64,000 nucleotides of DNA from an uncultured Candidatus Rokubacteria bacterium (GTDB taxonomy: Bacteria; Methylomirabilota; Methylomirabilia; Rokubacteriales; DASRDR01). The stretch covers positions 1-64,000 of the forward strand of contig CAVPSB010000018.1 in assembly GCA_963708025.1 (NCBI GenBank). Direction: 5' to 3'. Position 1 is the stretch's first letter; every line of letters begins with the position of its first letter. The notes under the pieces were generated by a model, which was given only the letters and a program-made list of their open reading frames with translations, ran no database searches and had not been told where the DNA came from. The position numbers and the translations under genes were made by a program. Below are positions 20,018-28,294 of the stretch, one piece after another.

Positions 20018-21139
20018 CTACGGCGCCAGCGCGGCGCGGGTGATGCGGTTCGCCGGGCCTTCGCGGTTGTACCACTCGGCCTCCAGGAAGGCGTCGTTGA
20101 TCCGCTCGAGCGGGAAGGTGTGCGAGACGAGCCGATCGAAGGGGTACCGGGTGCGGCTCCGCTGCAGGAACTCGAGCGCGCGGGGGATCACCCACGGGTC
20201 GTACATGACGACGCCCACGATGCGCTTCGACCCCCAGACGAGCGTCGAGGGGTCGAGCTCCACCGTGCGGCCCCGGCTGATGCAGCCGATCTCGAGGTAG
20301 GTGCCGCCGTGGCGCAGCATCTCGATCCCCTCCGGTACCACCGGCGGGAAGCCGACGAAGTCACACGCCACGTCGGCGCCGCGCCCGCCGGTCCAGTCGC
20401 GGACCTGCTTCACGCGCGCCTTGCGATCGGGCGTCTCGGTGAGGCTCACCGTGTGGTCGGCGCCGAAGGCCCGGGCCAGCTCGAGCCGCTCGGCGACCTG
20501 ATCGACGACGATGATCGTCGCCGCGCCCATGTCGCGCGCGACCGCGGTGGCCTGGATGCCCAGCCCGCCGGCGCCCTGGATCACGACGCTGTCGCCGAAG
20601 CGCAGGCCGGCCTGCGTGAGCCCGTAGAGGACCTGGGACAGCGCGCAGTTGACCGGCGAGACGAGGGCGTCCGGCAGCTCGTCGGGCACGCGGAAGCAGA
20701 AGCCGCCCGGCCGGAGGTAGTAGTACTCGGCGAAGGCGCCGACCCAGTGCGGGAACTCGCCGGGCCCCGTCGCCCGCCCGACCTTGGTCGGGCAGGCCGC
20801 CCGCTGGCCCTGGAGGCAGACGTAGCAGCGGCCGCACGGATAGAAGTAGCTGAAGGCGAGCCGGTCCCCCTCGCGGAGCGGGCGCCCGAGCGAGTCGGTC
20901 GCGACGCCGGACCCCAGCGCGGCCACCCGGCCGGTCATCTCGTGGCCGAAGATCCAGCCGTCGGGCGGGAGCGCCAGCGGGGCGTCGCCCCGCCAGAAGT
21001 GGAGGTCGGAGCCGCAGATGTTGGCGAGGGTGACGCGGATCAGCACCGCGCCCGGCTCGAGCGTCGGCAGCGGCAGCTCCTGGATCTGGAACGGCTTGCC
21101 GGGTCCGAAGAAAACGGCAGCCTTGCCGGTCTGAGCCAT
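20018..21139 (-). CDS. Zinc-dependent alcohol dehydrogenase (MDR family)
   Basis: CGSDLH, GHE, CxxCxxC, GAGGLG. Confidence 0.92.
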   Translation of the reverse strand: MAQTGKAAVFFGPGKPFQIQELPLPTLEPGAVLIRVTLANICGSDLHFWRGDAPLALPPDGWIFGHEMTGRVAALGSGVATDSLGRPLREGDRLAFSYFYPCGRCYVCLQGQRAACPTKVGRATGPGEFPHWVGAFAEYYYLRPGGFCFRVPDELPDALVSPVNCALSQVLYGLTQAGLRFGDSVVIQGAGGLGIQATAVARDMGAATIIVVDQVAERLELARAFGADHTVSLTETPDRKARVKQVRDWTGGRGADVACDFVGFPPVVPEGIEMLRHGGTYLEIGCISRGRTVELDPSTLVWGSKRIVGVVMYDPWVIPRALEFLQRSRTRYPFDRLVSHTFPLERINDAFLEAEWYNREGPANRITRAALAP

Positions 21140-21472
21140 GCGTGGACGACCTCCTGGCGGCGGGGTTCGCGTACGCGCGCGGGTCATGCTAGCACGCACC
21201 CGGAGGCGGTTCAAACGCGCGAGGCGCCGGCCCGGCGGGCCGCCGTCCGGCCGGCGTCGTCCCAGGGCAGCCCGCGTTGCCTCCGGGTCGCGCCACCCGG
21301 TCACATCATCGATCCGGGCGGAGGACACCCGATGCGAGCGGATCGACCGCTCGCGGGGCGGCCATGCCACGCCCCGTGGGACGAGCGAGACCGGGGCCCC
21401 CGGGAGGCACGCTCCCTGCAACGCGGCCACCTGACCGTGCGGTCCCACGCCACGTTGCCGGGATCCGACGGG

Positions 21473-21933
21473 CATCGGCTCCTGCTCGCGACCACCTCCG
21501 CCGGCGGCCTCCGCGTCAGCGAGGTCGTCGCCCTCAAGGTCGCCGACCTCGACGCCGACCGCATGACCATCCACATCAGTCAGGGCAAGGGTGGCCAGGA
21601 CCGCTACGTGCCGCTCTCCCAGCGGCTGCTGCAGGACTGGCGCGCGTACTGGTGCATCCGGCCCCCGCACGTCTGGCTCTTCGCCAACCGCCAGGGCACG
21701 CGCCCGATCGACATCACCGTCGCCCAGAAGCTCTACACGATGGCGAAGCTCCGCGCCGGCATTGCCAAGCAGGGCGGCATTCACGCGCTTCGTCACGCCG
21801 GAATCTGCCGACGGTACAGGCACTGCTGGGCCACCGCCACCTCTCTACCACTGCGCGCTATTTGCACCTGACACCCGGCCGCGTGCTCGCGACCGGCTCG
21901 CCCTTGGATCTGCCCGAGCCGCCCGGCGCCTGA
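21473..21933 (+). pseudogene. Tyrosine recombinase of IS91-associated type (N-terminally deleted, frameshifted)
   Basis: GLRVSE, GKGGQDR, HALRH, then a shifted frame QALLGHRHLSTTARY; lacks the IntI-specific insertion. Confidence 0.88.
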
Positions 21934-21936
21934 GTC

Positions 21937-22452
21937 GTGGCCCCGGCGTCGGCCGCCCCCGCGGGCGTCGGCGCTGAGCGAGCACACCGGGTCGAACTGG
22001 CCGACATCGTCCGCGCCCACGGCGCGGTGTATCAGTACGCCCACCCGCTGTGCCACGCCCAGCGCCGCGCTCTGCGCGCCATTGCGACGTGCCGCACGGC
22101 CGCGCTCGGCGGCCATCGCGCCGTCTGCACCGCCTGCGGCGCCGAGCGGATCACCTACAACTCCTGTCGGAATCGCCACTGCCCGAAATGCCAGCGAGTG
22201 GCCACCGAGCGCTGGCTCGCCGCGCGCCGCCGCGAGATCCTGCCGATTCCCTACTTCCACGTCGTCTTCACACTCCCCCACGCGCTCAACCCGCTGGCGC
22301 AAAGTCACCCGCGGCTGATTTATCGCCTGCTCTTTCAGAGCGCGGCCTCCACGCTGCTGCGCTTCGGTCGCGATCCGCGTCACCTCGGTGGCGACCTCGG
22401 CGTGACCGCCGTGCTCCACACCTGGGGCCAGACGCTCACGCAGCATGTGCAC
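21937..22452 (+). pseudogene. IS91-like (Y2/HUH) transposase, internally deleted
   Basis: ELADI, CRTAALGGH, YNSCRNRHCPKCQ zinc domain, YFHVVFTLP, HTWGQ..HVH, then abrupt loss of homology. Confidence 0.9.
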
Positions 22453-22515
22453 GTTGCTTCTAGCCACGCCGTCCCCGCGATACAATCCCCGTACGTCATG
22501 CGCGCGAGGGGTTTA

Positions 22516-22575
22516 GTCCAACTGGTTTTATCCGCCATGCTCGACGCACGACGGACAAAAGCCTGAACGTTATGC
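22516..22575 (+). other. attC-like recombination site at the end of the IS91-like unit
   Basis: RYYYAAC (GTCCAAC) ... inner inverted repeat TTTTATCCG/CGGACAAAA ... GTTRRRY-like core GTTATGC. Confidence 0.6.
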
Positions 22576-22673
22576 GGCATTCGACGCCGCGCGGCGTATC
22601 CTGTGTGATGGCTGCTATGGCCAGAAGCCGGCATTGGCTGCCGCTGCGGATTGACCGGCCAGGTCACCAAAGG

Positions 22674-23711
22674 ATGCCCGGCGCGATAAGAACCGCTTGC
22701 CTGGTGCTCCCGTTGTTGTTGACGCCCTCGCTCGCGGAGGCGAACGGGAAGGATATCGTTCTCGCCGACAGCCGGAGCGATGAGATAAGGAAAGGGACAG
22801 TCATCGGAAGTAAGGGCCGACATTTGAACGCCGATGACAGCATACGCGATCTCCTCGGCCACCCAGCCTTCGCCGGTTTCGCGAGGCTGCTTTTGCCGTG
22901 GGATGGTCGTCGCTATGACCAAGCCATGCGCCTGAGCGATATCGGTTCGCTCCTGCCGTATCACAGCCACGTGGATCCTAAGACGGTGGTGGGCGCACTC
23001 AATCGCATGATCGACGATGTGAATAGCGGTCACGCCGTGTTCTACCCGTTCTACAGCGAAGAACAGAAGCAGAAGCAACCCGCACGCGAAAATACAGGTT
23101 TGTTCTTCTTCCGCGGAAAGCCCAGTGCTCCCTTCGCCGTGATATCCCCCGGCGGCGGCTTCTCCTATGTCGGCTCCGTCCACGAAGGGTTTCCCTATGC
23201 CACCGAGATCAGCGCCAGGGGCTACAACGCTTTCGTGCTGCGATATCGCGCAGGCTATGGCGGCGCAGTCGCCACCGAGGATCTAGCTGCAGCCATCTCC
23301 TACATCTTCCGCAACGCGAAGGCGCTCGGCGTCAGCATCCGGGACTACTCCCTTTGGGGAAGCTCGGCCGGCGCAAGGATGGCGGCTGCCATCGGTTCGC
23401 ACGGCGTTGCCGCCCATGGCGGCGACATGCTTCCAAAACCGTCAGCTGTCGTGATGGCCTACACAGCCCATTCAGATTACTCGTCCGCTGAGCCTCCGAC
23501 CTTCGTCGTGGTCGGCGAACAGGACGCAATCGCGCCGCCGTCGTCGATGGAAAGACGAATTGCGGCCCTGCGCAGCGCAGGAATAGAGGTGGAGTACCAT
23601 AAGTATAGAAATCTCGGTCATGGCTTCGGGCCAGGAACCGGGACCAGCGCCGAAGGCTGGATCGCGGACGCCGTTCGGTTCTGGGAAAAGTTCATCACCC
23701 AACGGAACTGA
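22674..23711 (+). CDS. Secreted alpha/beta hydrolase (esterase-like), integron-type cassette gene
   Basis: Signal peptide, PGGGF, GSSAG nucleophile elbow, D and HGFG; visibly lower GC than flanks; start uncertain. Confidence 0.85.
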   Translation: MPGAIRTACLVLPLLLTPSLAEANGKDIVLADSRSDEIRKGTVIGSKGRHLNADDSIRDLLGHPAFAGFARLLLPWDGRRYDQAMRLSDIGSLLPYHSHVDPKTVVGALNRMIDDVNSGHAVFYPFYSEEQKQKQPARENTGLFFFRGKPSAPFAVISPGGGFSYVGSVHEGFPYATEISARGYNAFVLRYRAGYGGAVATEDLAAAISYIFRNAKALGVSIRDYSLWGSSAGARMAAAIGSHGVAAHGGDMLPKPSAVVMAYTAHSDYSSAEPPTFVVVGEQDAIAPPSSMERRIAALRSAGIEVEYHKYRNLGHGFGPGTGTSAEGWIADAVRFWEKFITQRN

Positions 23712-23871
23712 TGCGCCGGATGCCCCGCTGCTCCGTCTGTCCACGCGGCTATTCAACCGCTTCCAATGCCGGTGGCGTCGACTCGCATCTGCGTGTCGCG
23801 TCCTTCCCCAAGCAAAACATGTCTGCTTTGGGCGAAAGTGGATAACCAGTGGCTGCCTCAACCAAAATGCC

Positions 23872-23949
23872 GCATAACTTCCGCATGCACCTGACCGGCT
23901 CCAGCGGGCTTCGCCCGCTTCCGCCGGCAGGTGATGCGGGGCGTTATGC
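23872..23949 (+). other. Integron attC site (78 bp)
   Basis: R'' GCATAAC; L'' ATGCACCTG pairing with L' CAGGTGAT via extrahelical base; central hairpin GCGGGC-TTC-GCCCGC; R' GTTATGC. Confidence 0.88.
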
Positions 23950-23984
23950 CGGACTCGCGAGCAACGAGGAGCAGCGGCGCTGTC

Positions 23985-24185
23985 ATGGCACTCACGCATT
24001 GGGACCGCAGTCGGTGCCTTGACGATCTCGACCCGCCGGCATAGGGAAAGCCGACGTTCAACTCGTACCTCGTCACGACTTGTCACCGCCTACGCCGGAA
24101 GCCGATCGGGGAGTTCTCGACCGAGGACCTCCGCATCATGATCGGCCAGTCGATCTCGCTTGAGTTCCTCGTGCCGCTCGCCTTA
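23985..24185 (+). pseudogene. CdiI-like contact-dependent inhibition immunity protein (second cassette; nonsense codon, truncated)
   Basis: MALTHWDRSRCLDDLDPPA*GKPTFNSYLVTTCHRLRRKPIGEFSTEDLRIMIGQSISLEFLVPLA; TAG at 24042 where Trp is expected. Confidence 0.7.
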
Positions 24186-24231
24186 GTTCCTTCCGGATCG
24201 GGCTGCCCGGGTCATATCATCGAGTCTCGTG

Positions 24232-25605
24232 ATGAGCGGTCACGGTCTCCGTCGGTGGATCCTGGCGGCCATGCTCGTCGCCGGCGCGGCGCTCTGGTGG
24301 AGCCACGCGCCGGCGCCTCCCCGGGCGGGCGGCCCGCTGACTCACGAGGCCTACGTCTGGCAGCGGGTGTGGACGCCGCCCGTCGTCGAGGCCGTCCGGG
24401 CGCACGCCGTCGCCTTCGCGCGCCTGGTGGTGCTCGGGGCCGAGGTGTGGTGGCACCCGGGGCCCGGCGGAGCGCGGGTGCCCGAGGTGACCCGCGTGCC
24501 CCTCCGGGGCGACGTCCTCGGTGCCCTCCACCGCGAGGGCTTCCCCATCGGCCTCGCGCTGCGCATCGGTCCTCACCCGGGACCGTTCGCGGCCGACGAC
24601 GCGGGCGGGCGATTGCTTCGCGAGACCGCGATCGCCCTGGTGACCGACGCGCGGGACCAGGGCCTCGACCCGGCCGAGCTCCAGCTCGACTTCGACGCGG
24701 CGGAGTCGCAGCTCGAGGGCTACCGGGTCTGGGTGGAGTCGATCCGCCACGCGCTGCGCGGCCCCGGCGCCCCGGCGGTGCCGGTGACCCTGACCGCCCT
24801 GCCGAGCTGGCTCCCCCACGCCGCCTTCACGCGCCTCGCCCGCGCCAGCGACGGCTTCGTGCTCCAGGTCCACTCCCTCGATCGGCCGGCGCGCGCCGAT
24901 GCCCCGCTCGTGCTCGCGGACCCGGCGGCCGCGCGGCGCTGGGTCGAGCAAGCCGCCCGCGCCGGCGTTCCCTTCCGGGTCGCGCTGCCGACACACGGGT
25001 ATCGCCTGGCCTTCGACGGGCGCGGCCGCTTCCTGGGCGCCGCCGCCGAGCAAGGCCGGATCCTGGCGTCGCCTGGCAGCGGCGCCCGGGTGCGGGAGCT
25101 CCGGGCCGACCCGGATGCAATGGCGGCGCTCGTCCGGGCGTGGACCGACGGCGCCGTGGCCCGGCCGGCCCTGCTGCAGGGAATCCTCTGGTACCGGCTG
25201 CCGACGCCCGACGACGAGCTGAACTGGCGCTGGCCGACGCTGGCCGCCGTGATGCAGGGCCGGGCGCCGCGCGGGGTGCTGGCGGCGCGGGCGCGCGCCG
25301 TCGTACCGGGGCTGGTCGAGATCGAGGTCGTGAACACCGGCGACGCTGACGTTGCCCTGGACGCGCCCGACCTGGCGGTCGTCGCGCGGTGGAGCGCCGC
25401 GGCCTCCGACGGACCGGCCCCGCGGGTGATCGCGATGGACGCCGTCGGCGGCTTCGACGCGCGCCAGGGTATGGGCTCGGTGCGGCTCACCCCGACGGCC
25501 ACCGGACGCGCCTCTCGCCTCGGCCCCGGCGAACAGCGCCTCGTCTCCTGGATTCGCTTCTCCATTCCGGCCCGCGTGAGCGCCGATGTCGAGCCGCCCC
25601 GCTAG
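24232..25605 (+). CDS. DUF3142-like exported protein
   Basis: AYVWQRVW, LQLDFD, TALPSW, FVLQVH, VALPT, WYRLP..DELNW. Confidence 0.78.
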   Translation: MSGHGLRRWILAAMLVAGAALWWSHAPAPPRAGGPLTHEAYVWQRVWTPPVVEAVRAHAVAFARLVVLGAEVWWHPGPGGARVPEVTRVPLRGDVLGALHREGFPIGLALRIGPHPGPFAADDAGGRLLRETAIALVTDARDQGLDPAELQLDFDAAESQLEGYRVWVESIRHALRGPGAPAVPVTLTALPSWLPHAAFTRLARASDGFVLQVHSLDRPARADAPLVLADPAAARRWVEQAARAGVPFRVALPTHGYRLAFDGRGRFLGAAAEQGRILASPGSGARVRELRADPDAMAALVRAWTDGAVARPALLQGILWYRLPTPDDELNWRWPTLAAVMQGRAPRGVLAARARAVVPGLVEIEVVNTGDADVALDAPDLAVVARWSAAASDGPAPRVIAMDAVGGFDARQGMGSVRLTPTATGRASRLGPGEQRLVSWIRFSIPARVSADVEPPR

Positions 25606-27682
25606 CGTCCGCGTGCTCGCGGCCTGGGGGCTGGGCGTGGCCACGGCGCTCGCCGTCGGCATCGCGCTGGCCTGTGGGCCTTTTCTCGAGCCGCGGCTCT
25701 TCTTCCATTCCGACGACGTCGTGATCGCGGCGCCCCGGATGGTCTTCGAGAAGGAGGTCGAGCGGCTCAAACCGGTCGGCCCACCTGTGTTCGTCCCGCC
25801 GGCGCTCCCCGGTGACCAGCGGGGGCAGACCCTGTGGGCCGATGTCGGCGACCTCGAGGAGGCGCTGGATCGCGCCGGCGTCGTCACGTTGACACGGGAC
25901 GGGCTGCTGGCCGCCTACAAGGCGGCCCGGGGACGACTCTTCCAGGTCGAGGGGAAGAAGGCGTCGGACGCCGGGCCGGTGCCGCCAGACATCCCGCCGG
26001 AGTTCGCCGACTACCTGCGCGGCGCGATGGCGTATCACGCGAGGCGGCCCGACGAGGCCCGTCAGGCCTGGCAGGCGGTCCTCGCACGGCCTCCGGAGGA
26101 GCGCCGCGCCCGCTCGACCTGGGCGGCGTTCATGCTCGGGCGGAGCCTGCTCGAGACGGACGCGGGGGAGGCGGTGGGCTGGTTCCGTCGGGTCCGCGAG
26201 CTGGCCGGCGCCGGCTTCGCCGACAGCCTGGGACTCGCCGCGGCGAGCATCGGCTGGGAGGCGCGGGCCGAGCTGCGGCGCGGCGAGTACGAGCGCGCGA
26301 TCGAGCTCTACCTGATCCAGCTCGCGGCCGGGGACGCGACGGCCTCCCTGTCCCTCGAGCTGACCGCTCGGCGGATCGTCGCCGCGGGCACGCTCGCCCG
26401 CGTCGCGAGGCACCCCCAGGCCCGGCGCGTGGTCACCGCCTACGTCCTCTCGCGGCGCGAGCCGGTCCTCTACCCCGGCGGCTGGGTCGCGCGCCTCGCC
26501 GGCGACTGGCTCGCCGCGCTCGAGCAGACGCAGAGCGCCGACGTGGCGGATGCCGATCGGCTGGCGGCCGTCGCCTACCAGGGCGGAGACCTGGCGCAGA
26601 CGGCCCGTTGGTTGGCCCTCGCCCCCACCGACTCGCCGATCGCCCAGTGGCTGCAGGCCAAGCTGCTGCTGCGTGGCGGGAAGCTCGATGAGGCGGCGGC
26701 GCGCCTCGCGCAGGCGAGTCGGAGCTTCCCGCTCGTCACGGGGCGCTTCCTCCTCGACGACGACTGGTACGTCATGTACGACTACTACGGCGAATCCCGC
26801 ACGGCATCCCTGGCGATCCGGCTCGAGGCCGGCATCCTCCACCTGACCCGCCGCCAGTACGCCGAGGCGCTCGATGCGCTGCTCCGCGCGCGCTTCTGGA
26901 CCGACGCCGCGTACGTCGCCGAGCGCGTCCTGACACCGGACGAGCTGGTCGCGTACGTCGATCGCGAGTGGCCACCGTCCGCCGTGCAGGAGCCGCCGGC
27001 CCAGGAGAGGAGGTTGTGGGACGGGAACCGGCCGCCCGAACGCCTCGGCGCCCACCTCCGCCATCTCCTGGCCCGCCGCCTCGCCCGGCTCGGGCGCTTT
27101 GCCGAGGGCCGCAAGTACATGCCCGCACGCTTCCGGCCCGACCTCGACGCCTACGTGGCGGCGCTCGAGGCGGGACACGACCGGCGCCGCCCCGCGGACG
27201 GCTCGGGCAGCCGCGCGCTCGCGCTGTGGCAGGCGGCGCGGCTCGCGCGGGGGCGCGGCATGGAGCTGTTCGGGATGGAGCTGTCGCCGGACGCCTACGT
27301 GTACGACGGCGACCTCGAGATCGAGGCCGGCTTGGAGGAGACCAGCGGCCGGGCCAAGGGCCCGCTCACGGGCGCCAGTGCCGACGAGCAGCTCCGCGCC
27401 GCGCGGCATCGCCTGCACCCCGAGCGCCGATTCCACTATCGGTTCCTCGCGGCCGACCTCGCCTGGCAGGCCGCCGCCCTCATGCCGAATCAGGATCCCC
27501 GGACGGCGAAGGTCCTCTGGACCGCGGGCTCGTGGCTGAAGGAGCGGGCACCGAGGGACGCCGACCGCTTCTACAAGGCGCTCGTCCGGCGCTGCGGCAG
27601 CACGCCGCTCGGACACGAGGCGGACCGGCTCCGCTGGTTCCCCGCCGTCGATCCGACGGACGGCGCGAAGCCCGAGCCCTGA
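25586..27682 (+). CDS. Large exported helical-repeat (TPR-like) hypothetical protein
   Basis: Signal peptide ending ACGP; Ala/Leu-rich helical repeats; overlaps the DUF3142-like gene. Confidence 0.75.
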   Translation: MSSRPASVRVLAAWGLGVATALAVGIALACGPFLEPRLFFHSDDVVIAAPRMVFEKEVERLKPVGPPVFVPPALPGDQRGQTLWADVGDLEEALDRAGVVTLTRDGLLAAYKAARGRLFQVEGKKASDAGPVPPDIPPEFADYLRGAMAYHARRPDEARQAWQAVLARPPEERRARSTWAAFMLGRSLLETDAGEAVGWFRRVRELAGAGFADSLGLAAASIGWEARAELRRGEYERAIELYLIQLAAGDATASLSLELTARRIVAAGTLARVARHPQARRVVTAYVLSRREPVLYPGGWVARLAGDWLAALEQTQSADVADADRLAAVAYQGGDLAQTARWLALAPTDSPIAQWLQAKLLLRGGKLDEAAARLAQASRSFPLVTGRFLLDDDWYVMYDYYGESRTASLAIRLEAGILHLTRRQYAEALDALLRARFWTDAAYVAERVLTPDELVAYVDREWPPSAVQEPPAQERRLWDGNRPPERLGAHLRHLLARRLARLGRFAEGRKYMPARFRPDLDAYVAALEAGHDRRRPADGSGSRALALWQAARLARGRGMELFGMELSPDAYVYDGDLEIEAGLEETSGRAKGPLTGASADEQLRAARHRLHPERRFHYRFLAADLAWQAAALMPNQDPRTAKVLWTAGSWLKERAPRDADRFYKALVRRCGSTPLGHEADRLRWFPAVDPTDGAKPEP

Positions 27683-27787
27683 CCGGGCCCGAGGTTCGTC
27701 ACCGGCGCCGGATCGGCGTTGCGGCGGCCCCGAAGCCGGGATATCCTGGCGCGCGGCGGTCGGGCTCCGGCCGCGGGAGGCACACGC

Positions 27788-28294
27788 GTGGGCTACGTCG
27801 AGCGGCACCTTCTGCCGAACGAGCGGGTTCTCTACAAGACGCGGCTCCACTGGATCCTCTTCGCGAAGCCGGCGCTGCTCGTCCTGGTCGGCCTGGTCCT
27901 TGCCGCGGTCCTCTGGCGGGTCCAGAATCCGCCCTGGCTCTGGTACGTCGGGCTCGTGGTCCTCGTGGCGGGCCTGGTCTGGAGCCTGGTCCACGTCGTC
28001 GAGCTGCTGACCTCCGAGTTCGCCGTCACCACCACGCGGCTCATCTTCAAGGTGGGCCTCATCGCGCGGTACACGACGGAGCTGCTGCTCTCGAAGGTGG
28101 AGTCGGTCGGCGTCACCCAGGGGCTCCTGGGCCGCATCCTGCGCTACGGCGACCTCACGGTGACCGGGACCGGGGGGGCCCGCGAGGTCTTCCGCCGCGT
28201 CGGGGACCCGATCGGCTTCCGGAACCACGTCCAGCACGCCTCCGTGCTCCGGGAAGGCGGCGAGGCCGGCGGCGTCCCGCCGGCGCCCCGCTGA
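27788..28294 (+). CDS. Membrane protein with bacterial PH domain
   Basis: Two TMs then EFAVTTTRLIFKVG...Q.LLGRILRYGDL; GGGAGG RBS + GTG. Confidence 0.85.
   Translation: MGYVERHLLPNERVLYKTRLHWILFAKPALLVLVGLVLAAVLWRVQNPPWLWYVGLVVLVAGLVWSLVHVVELLTSEFAVTTTRLIFKVGLIARYTTELLLSKVESVGVTQGLLGRILRYGDLTVTGTGGAREVFRRVGDPIGFRNHVQHASVLREGGEAGGVPPAPR

Follow-up and report, generated by a model that had tools for sequence, protein, structure and literature searches.

The element remnant and its cassettes

The window analyzed here, a stretch of 64,000 nucleotides (contig C18, positions 1 to 64000), belongs to the genome of an uncultured Candidatus Rokubacteria bacterium (8.17 Mb, 71% G+C, 49 contigs, 99.7% complete, 8.2% contamination) and contains the remnant of an insertion sequence (IS) of the IS91 family, which is directly followed by integron gene cassettes. 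A tyrosine recombinase gene, an HUH transposase gene and a hairpin resembling the recombination site of cassettes (attC) precede a complete cassette and the start of a second one (Table 1). The succession of a recombinase gene and an IS91-like HUH transposase gene had been proposed in an earlier reading of the bare letters (the sequence-only reading), and both genes lie where it had placed them, but both of them are broken. The recombinase remnant begins at about residue 120 of 281 (approximately 119 N-terminal residues are gone), suffered a frameshifting deletion of 28 nt at 21796/21797 and retains only a 25-residue piece with a Pfam match. What is left of the transposase gives a Pfam match to Zn_Tnp_IS91 (E 4e-32) and reaches position 19 of Y2_Tnp; the remainder, from about residue 173 on, was lost through a deletion of 890 nt at 22454/22455.

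An intact counterpart of the element is present in the genome of a relative (G021:C11, locus L026). Positions 21471 to 22454 of the window are 84% identical to it, and positions 22456 to 22572 are 93% identical to a stretch located 890 nt further on. Since both parts match a single intact unit across the deletion, the left part and the right end belong to one element. The region from 21471 to 22568 is a dead copy of this element, whose two broken mobility genes leave nothing that is able to act now.

The intact element in L026 encodes a tyrosine recombinase of 281 aa (P0002) and a transposase of 404 aa (P0001). The transposase reaches 446.9 bits with NF033538 (cut-off 125) and contains PF14319 and PF04986, i.e., the zinc-binding and Y2 HUH domains that define the IS91 family. 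P0001 obtains 30.7 bits with NF052416, the model of ISCR clade Ia with a cut-off of 925, and is thus no ISCR member. The recombinase exhibits the domains Phage_int_SAM_4 and Phage_integrase, and its best NCBIfam match is TIGR02249 with 182.8 bits, below the cut-off of 265. It aligns to this profile in two stretches, the first of which covers profile positions 6 to 174, and skips the IntI-specific segment (ALARKYP..WQWVFP..RRHHLHE) that is present in P0003 and in the integron integrase (IntI) encoded on contig C24 of the genome under study; P0002 is accordingly no IntI. This bears out the sequence-only proposal of a recombinase that lacks the IntI insertion and agrees with the accessible text of a preprint, where IS91-linked recombinases group with IntI, as its closest kin, but without its insertion (10.1101/542381). 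An intI gene beside the intact element of G021 (L026, 1608-3167) lacks internal parts, including the stretch around the first catalytic arginine, and keeps the IntI-specific segment and the C-terminus.

A wider scan based on one genome per species yielded 601 confirmed transposase relatives, and 78 loci were kept. The recombinase gene is located directly upstream of the transposase gene in 73 of these loci, which represent many phyla; three of the other five are too near to a contig end to tell. The ends are of the IS91 type, with two unlike termini, subterminal palindromes and GTTN at the limits, and the left end, GTTG followed by the small palindrome ACCGC..GCGGT, is terIS-like. The element is hence a variant of the IS91 family. 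ISfinder lists several members of this family with an upstream tyrosine recombinase gene. Elements of this kind, annotated at NCBI as "tyrosine-type recombinase/integrase" and "IS91 family transposase", share with ours the gene pair and its order, the unlike ends and GTTN at both limits.

The remnant is followed by the complete cassette that had been predicted to run from the core at 22569 to a canonical attC, and this prediction held. Positions 22566 to 23946 have a 97% identical counterpart in a different cassette array of the same genome (C31:270950-272330), and because the limits of the two copies are identical, the hydrolase cassette is a discrete unit with the proposed boundaries. Its attC was scored with a local covariance model (R1), which was built from 14 attC sites of related loci, the attC of the window being left out of the training. 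The site obtains 53.6 bits on the plus strand (E 4e-11) and 17.3 bits on the minus strand, folds with a z-score of -6.5 and shows two bulged bases in the 3' arm when its bottom strand is folded. Its R'' box GCATAAC is, as had been read beforehand, the exact complement of the core GTTATGC at 22569. An Rfam scan of positions 21000 to 24600 returned no attC family and, on the attC, only a sub-threshold match to Xoo5 (18.2 bits versus 50). The second cassette starts at the next GTT as anticipated, but it is cut within its CdiI_3 immunity gene, and no attC was detected 3' of it with the local model.

No intI gene was found at the window locus, which consequently does not combine intI, attI and cassettes as a complete integron does. 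The region from 21471 to 24185 very probably represents a decayed fragment of an integrase-less cassette array (CALIN) that is headed by a dead, cassette-like IS91-family element of 2.5 kb. It resembles a CALIN in having cassettes and attC without a local intI gene, the integrase being encoded on another contig, but it differs in that one attC is left and that the cluster is headed by the end of an element rather than by an attC. ISs in or near CALINs are not unusual, as they were recorded for 12% of these clusters in the retrievable part of a survey (PMC4889954).

Table 1. Features of the window around the element remnant
Feature	Position	Strand	Evidence
Lineage-specific stretch	21260..27770	.	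tblastx and sequence comparison with L017, L019, L021, L023; Pfam
Flanking repeat, copy 1, CCCGGTCACATCATCGA	21296..21312	+	Read from sequence
Tyrosine recombinase remnant, catalytic domain only	21471..21933	+	84% identity to L026 3878-4368; Pfam Phage_integrase fragment
IS91-family transposase, 5' part (zinc-binding domain and start of HUH/Y2)	21937..22454	+	PF14319; alignment to L026 4372-4889
Element right end (oriIS side)	22456..22568	+	88-93% identical to 3' ends of elements in other genomes; pair counts
Complete gene cassette, limits G/TT, ORF 22572-23711 (alpha/beta hydrolase, 379 aa)	22570..23943	+	97% copy on C31; Pfam Abhydrolase_3, Peptidase_S9, BD-FAE
Canonical attC of the hydrolase cassette, R'' GCATAAC, R' GTTATGC	23872..23949	+	Fold; local attC model
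Second cassette start, CdiI_3 immunity gene fragment 24057-24185, cut near 24185	23944..24185	+	PF18616 E 4e-14, profile positions 14-55 of 95
Flanking repeat, copy 2, CCCGGGTCATATCATCGA, imperfect, just 5' of DUF3142 gene	24206..24223	+	Read from sequence

Right end, position and orientation of the element

The 113-nt right end is intact in the window copy. It contains the RYYYAAC-type box GTCCAAC (22516-22522), the arms of a 15-bp stem (22526-22540 and 22546-22560) and the spacer GCCTGAAC (22561-22568), after which GTTATGC follows (22569-22575). The region from 22516 to 22575 had been regarded as an attC-like palindrome formed by the end of the IS. This view was right with respect to the two boxes, which have the form of attC boxes (RYYYAAC and GTTRRRY), and to the stem; homology between the copies stops at the GTT. 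The local model, with scores of 6 to 7 bits, and the absence of bulges nevertheless set it apart: the hairpin is the conserved right end of the element itself and by this model not a canonical attC. Covariance scoring, which had been proposed for both sites, recovered with the local model the attC of the hydrolase cassette and not the right end.

Among 183 genomes of the host's order, the right-end sequence was matched 33 times in 24 genomes. Across 22 aligned right ends, bottom-strand pairing holds for 97.9% of the stem cells, and four pairs are changed on both sides, a level of paired covariation that was reached by 5 of 500 shuffles. One G.T pair, which is a mismatch on the top strand, is kept in 20 of the 22 sequences, and G.T wobbles of the stem are confined to the bottom strand. 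In 27 of 34 right ends, this strand gives the more stable hairpin, namely in 13 of 18 from a diverse set and in 14 of 16 from the order, whose copies are related. In the wider family the stem sequences are wholly different, and the hairpin is always located 3' of a GGTTTAGTYCAAC box. The right end presumably resembles published oriIS sequences.

The hairpin of the window alone folds no better than its shuffles (z-scores of -1.29 for the bottom and +0.27 for the top strand), and both mobility genes are broken, as would be expected if an ordinary cassette cluster happened to lie beside an unrelated, broken IS and if positions 22516 to 22575 were the attC of a lost upstream cassette. Such a chance neighborhood is highly improbable, however, and is refuted by two results: the last 113 nt ahead of the cassette form the 3' terminus of more than 20 other copies as well as of the intact L026 element, and the GTT junction recurs with different cassettes. 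The hairpin is considered to be real because of its conservation across the copies and not because of its own fold energy. The related idea that 22456-22568 is the tail of an unrelated upstream cassette that was cut by an IS was ruled out by the identity of these nucleotides with the 3' end of intact elements. In four loci (L133, L134, L137 and L143), partial right-end hairpins occur without the GTCCAAC box or a transposase gene, each followed by a cassette start of the GTT/TTT-AGGC type, and resemble residual ends that were retained in arrays.

In the order of the host, the element sits exactly at the crossover point of attI or attC, and its orientation is invariably that of the cassettes. 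GTT comes next after the right end in 25 of 28 cases, mostly as part of a GTTRRRY heptamer (GTTAGGC seven times, GTTCGGC five times, also GTTAGCC, GTTATCC, GTTGGAC, GTTGGGC and others), and the DNA beyond differs each time; the three other flanks are GCTAGGC, TTTAGGC and CTCACGC. An attC match on the same strand was found within 1.5 kb downstream of 15 of the 28 right ends. This count is based on the covariance model, which took the place of a stricter approach that looked downstream for an R'' complementing the flanking heptamer; such an R'' was located for 10 of 28 right ends, some of them doubtful, and in the controls twice upstream and six times on the reverse strand. At the opposite end, all 24 distinct copies start with GTTGAACTAAACCGCT, and 23 of them have flanking sequence. 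Seven of these (L029, L148, L152, L157, L162, L164, L167) directly adjoin an attC, the R' of which is the element's own GTTGAAC; with the strand fixed by the local model and by the cassette genes, the element comes after the L' arm and contributes R'. Five left ends are located approximately 200 to 245 nt past an intI gene of the same orientation (L146, L150, L154, L158, L168). Four others (L147, L156, L159, L161) have the flank ..ATACGCAGACCAGCCTATCC..GCCGAATTCTA that in L154 and L168 lies between intI and the element; intI was not found within 1.5 kb of them, and the shared flank may be an attI carried along with the element or a remnant after the loss of intI. The remaining seven left ends are not assigned to any of these contexts; one of them (L169) repeats the flank of L154. 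Without the unpublished genomes G038, G045 and G176, the GTT flank is present in 23 of 26 cases and a downstream attC in 14 of 26, while six left ends abut an attC and three lie past intI.

Every attC match beside an end of the element, in the order and in loci outside, is on the strand of the element, and no element was found in opposite orientation at the R'' side, although that strand reads GTTRRRY as well. The R'' of the left attC matches the right flank in L091, but not in L029/L028 and L032; this comparison does not separate insertion from later capture, since in arrays R' belongs to the next cassette. In L122 (G178:C154), GTTGAAC, the heptamer with which the element itself begins, stands between the right end and GTTGGGC; this solo left-end heptamer before the next cassette may be the trace of a junction or an excision.

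Among the loci outside the order, L091 interrupts an attC, with R'' GTCTAAC to its left and GTTAGAC to its right, L100 begins about 85 nt past an intI remnant, L078 lies 1.4 kb past intI, and L047 and L059 have attC matches downstream. Other relatives reside in Clostridia, on rhizobial plasmids (417 plasmid records) and in further contexts.

These findings support the second of two alternatives offered in the sequence-only reading, a mobile element with an attC-resembling end that sits in integron arrays: the 3' end is conserved, variable cassettes follow it, and left ends abut attC or follow intI. The first alternative, a cassette-capture platform driven by the enzymes of the element, is possible. 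Two outcomes had been named that would leave a mere coincidence, i.e., homologues without an enrichment of downstream attC sites or cassettes and a hairpin that is neither conserved nor able to fold, and neither of them was observed. The homologues had been meant to be examined in genomes lacking intI, and this part of the proposal was inapplicable, as the genome under study has an intI gene on C24 and an intI fragment on C26.

Placement of the element and relation to known systems

The element is built like a cassette, since it begins with (G)TTGAAC and ends with an RYYYAAC box, a hairpin and a spacer, after which G/TT follows. Compared with the reverse complement of the right-end box, the first heptamer is identical at all 7 positions or at 6 of them in 17 of 21 elements, a match that is partly built into the search patterns, and the two vary together, with GTTCAAT accompanied by ATTGAAC (three times) and GTTCACC by AGTGAAC. 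In the head-to-tail tandems of L049 (period 2,599-2,600) and L063 (period 2,633), the right end of one copy passes straight into the left end of the next (..C ATTGAACTAAACC). Owing to the complementarity of the left heptamer and the right-end box, a full attC-like site arises where the two ends are joined, be it in a circle or in a tandem. A plausible course of events starts with the release of the element as a circle by the HUH enzyme. Reasoned from the polarity of rolling-circle nicking, the released circle would probably consist of the bottom strand, and its folded junction could then be exchanged at G/TT with attI or attC by a tyrosine recombinase, either the IntI of the host or the IntI-like enzyme of the element.

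The element takes the positions of cassettes and behaves like an integron cassette. It shares with cassettes the G/TT limits, the 3' hairpin starting from an RYYYAAC box, the complementarity of its first bases to this box and the co-oriented location at attI or after attC. It differs from them by its size of 2.5 kb with mobility genes of its own, the bulge-free hairpin, the spacer that is unpaired on the other arm, the low attC score and the relatives outside integrons. We regard a tyrosine recombinase step in the placement of the element as moderately likely, because the attI position is occupied, RRRY follows the GTT and a single orientation is observed.

The HUH transposase is still a candidate for choosing the site, since its family has a GTTN habit. 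It might alone set the position if, like the enzymes of IS801 and IS1294, it cleaved GTTN both at terIS and in the target and preferred targets resembling oriIS. A folded attC, with its hairpin, a short spacer and GTT, would be such a target, and the recombinase would then have another task, e.g., the resolution of the tandem multimers that arise by rolling-circle transposition. This is possible, but less probable than a recombinase step. According to the accessible text of one source, IS91-family elements have GTTC or CTTG targets, a like tetranucleotide at terIS and palindromes at oriIS, and form single- and double-stranded circles (PMC13181058). The left end with GTTG and the ACCGC..GCGGT palindrome resembles terIS, tandem arrays do occur, and relatives live in hosts and contexts without attC matches, all of which is consistent with the transposase acting alone. 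Arguments against it are the five elements at the attI position past intI, a site that is not known to be a hairpin, an RRRY after GTT that is far commoner than a 4-nt rule demands, and the lack of oppositely oriented elements at the R'' side.

Several observations weigh against a cassette-like placement by a recombinase. GTT at both limits needs no recombinase, since IS91-family elements without one use GTTC or CTTG targets (PMC13181058, accessible text). The extrahelical bases of attC are missing from the right end, whose stem has no bulge and leaves 5 unpaired nt on the 5' side of the bottom strand, whereas the true attC sites of this lineage have two bulged bases on the 3' arm of that strand, and a bulge-free right end may not be accepted by IntI. 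Its scores in the window, 6.2 bits on the plus and 7.1 bits on the minus strand, correspond to E-values of 2.4 to 3.8 in 7 kb and are noise; the best right ends elsewhere reach 21.8 to 25.3 bits, compared with 34 to 74 bits for attC matches outside the training set. The model itself was trained on only 14 sites, some of which come from the same loci as were counted, and is lineage-specific. For 13 of the 28 right ends in the order, no attC match was found in the 0.4 to 1.5 kb available downstream, and the second copy of the element in the genome under study, on contig C15, is followed by CTCACGC instead of GTT. The copies in the order are related, and the counts accordingly overstate their independence. 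Finally, the relatives in Clostridia, on rhizobial plasmids and in other contexts gave no attC match with the lineage-specific model, and their flanks, which include ATT, ACT and ATA, indicate that the family does not depend on integrons.

A rule of position and orientation at attI or attC, or an attC-like junction, is stated in no paper among the accessible parts of the searchable literature, where a single IS91-like element beside an attC is noted. The latter is ISShvi3 from a Shewanella integron (PMC9229058). The described elements with an IS91 transposase and a recombinase hence differ from the one presented here by the absence of such a rule or junction from these accounts; the window copy, for its part, is dead. 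The accessible text of the same study names IS1111-attC elements and group IIC-attC introns together as specialized on attC sites (PMC9229058). Like these, the element occupies a fixed site in a fixed orientation at integrons, but it is located at the cassette boundary, where the limits of the cassettes stay intact, and also at the attI position. The mobility enzymes of the two groups are a DEDD transposase in the case of IS1111-attC elements and a reverse transcriptase in the case of the introns. Another comparison concerns ISCR1, an IS91-related rolling-circle element that is linked to integrons according to the retrievable parts of two papers (PMC8876359, PMC13393415). Unlike our element, it carries no recombinase gene, and its place in complex class 1 integrons is beyond the 3' conserved segment instead of at a cassette boundary.

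The mobility of integron cassettes is thought to depend wholly on IntI, and the origin of attC and IntI is a standing question. The closest kin of IntI travel in a rolling-circle element, and rolling-circle transposition makes single-stranded DNA, which turns the element into a testable system for the emergence of folded single-strand recombination sites. A speculative and on the whole doubtful extension would be that IS91 elements with a recombinase are self-propelled cassettes: the HUH enzyme would make a bottom-strand circle, whose junction would fold into a bulge-free proto-attC, and the IntI-like recombinase without the bulge-reading insertion would integrate the circle at G/TT sites; the module of IntI and attC would then share ancestry with a rolling-circle IS or derive from it, and ordinary cassettes would be its non-autonomous passengers. 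Beside IS1111-attC elements and group IIC-attC introns, the element is a third type that colonizes integrons, and it may seed arrays or break them and thus give rise to CALINs. There is also a risk for annotation, because recombinases of this kind can pass for unusual integron integrases, and the ends of the elements for attC sites.

Genome setting of the locus

Over the positions 22400 to 24200 of the window, the G+C content drops from about 75% to about 60%. The surrounding stretch of 6.5 kb (Table 1) contains the element remnant, the cassettes, a DUF3142 gene and a gene for a 698-aa TPR-like protein. It is lineage-specific, since in four relatives (L017, L019, L021, L023) the alcohol-dehydrogenase-like gene is followed after at most approximately 165 nt by the counterpart of the gene that starts at position 27788 of the window.

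The genome under study harbors an intI gene with one frameshift at C24:97846-98792, where the shift lies near the IntI insertion and the gene reads in two frames. Contig C24 has eight attC matches, seven of which are located within about 5 kb downstream of intI, and the whole genome has 17 attC matches at E of 0.001 or below. In the C24 integron (G000:C24:88610-98792, locus L037), intI is co-oriented with its cassettes and not divergent, and the contig ends 81 nt past intI; the same co-orientation is found in L026, L078, L100, L154, L158 and L168. An intI fragment on contig C26 (74294-74669) matches only the first 71 positions of the integron integrase model and is followed after 70 nt by an attC match of 54 bits; the two may represent a second, decayed integron. 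The second copy of the element (C15:236775-237500, corresponding to L031 3775-4500) is also decayed and comprises only the last 530 nt or so, including the right end, with a weak attC match (22.4 bits) about 115 nt past it.

This setting bears on the question of whether the cassettes preceded the element or were added to it. The right end of an element that has landed could serve as a platform at which IntI, acting in trans, or the recombinase of the element adds cassettes and thereby seeds clusters away from the integron, as here and on C15. Such a capture would fit the lineage-specific insertion at the window locus, the two contexts of the hydrolase cassette, which is preceded by an ordinary array site on C31 and by the right end of the element here, and the fact that both decayed copies of this genome, on C18 and C15, head attC-bearing DNA at loci without intI. 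However, an insertion of the element upstream of an existing cassette leaves identical junctions, and the window copy has lost its left part and with it the original left flank. The relatives have attC or intI upstream, too, which points to elements inside arrays and not to elements founding them, and capture at the right end is therefore quite unlikely. Two observations on the flanks can be added. The imperfect repeats of 17 to 18 nt listed in Table 1 bracket the element remnant and the cassettes and are similar to the promoter region that precedes the downstream gene in relatives. Beyond the second repeat, the region from 24229 to 27682 with the DUF3142 gene and the 698-aa gene, whose TPR-like signals are weak, has a host-like G+C content of 75 to 80% and lies within the same lineage-specific stretch.

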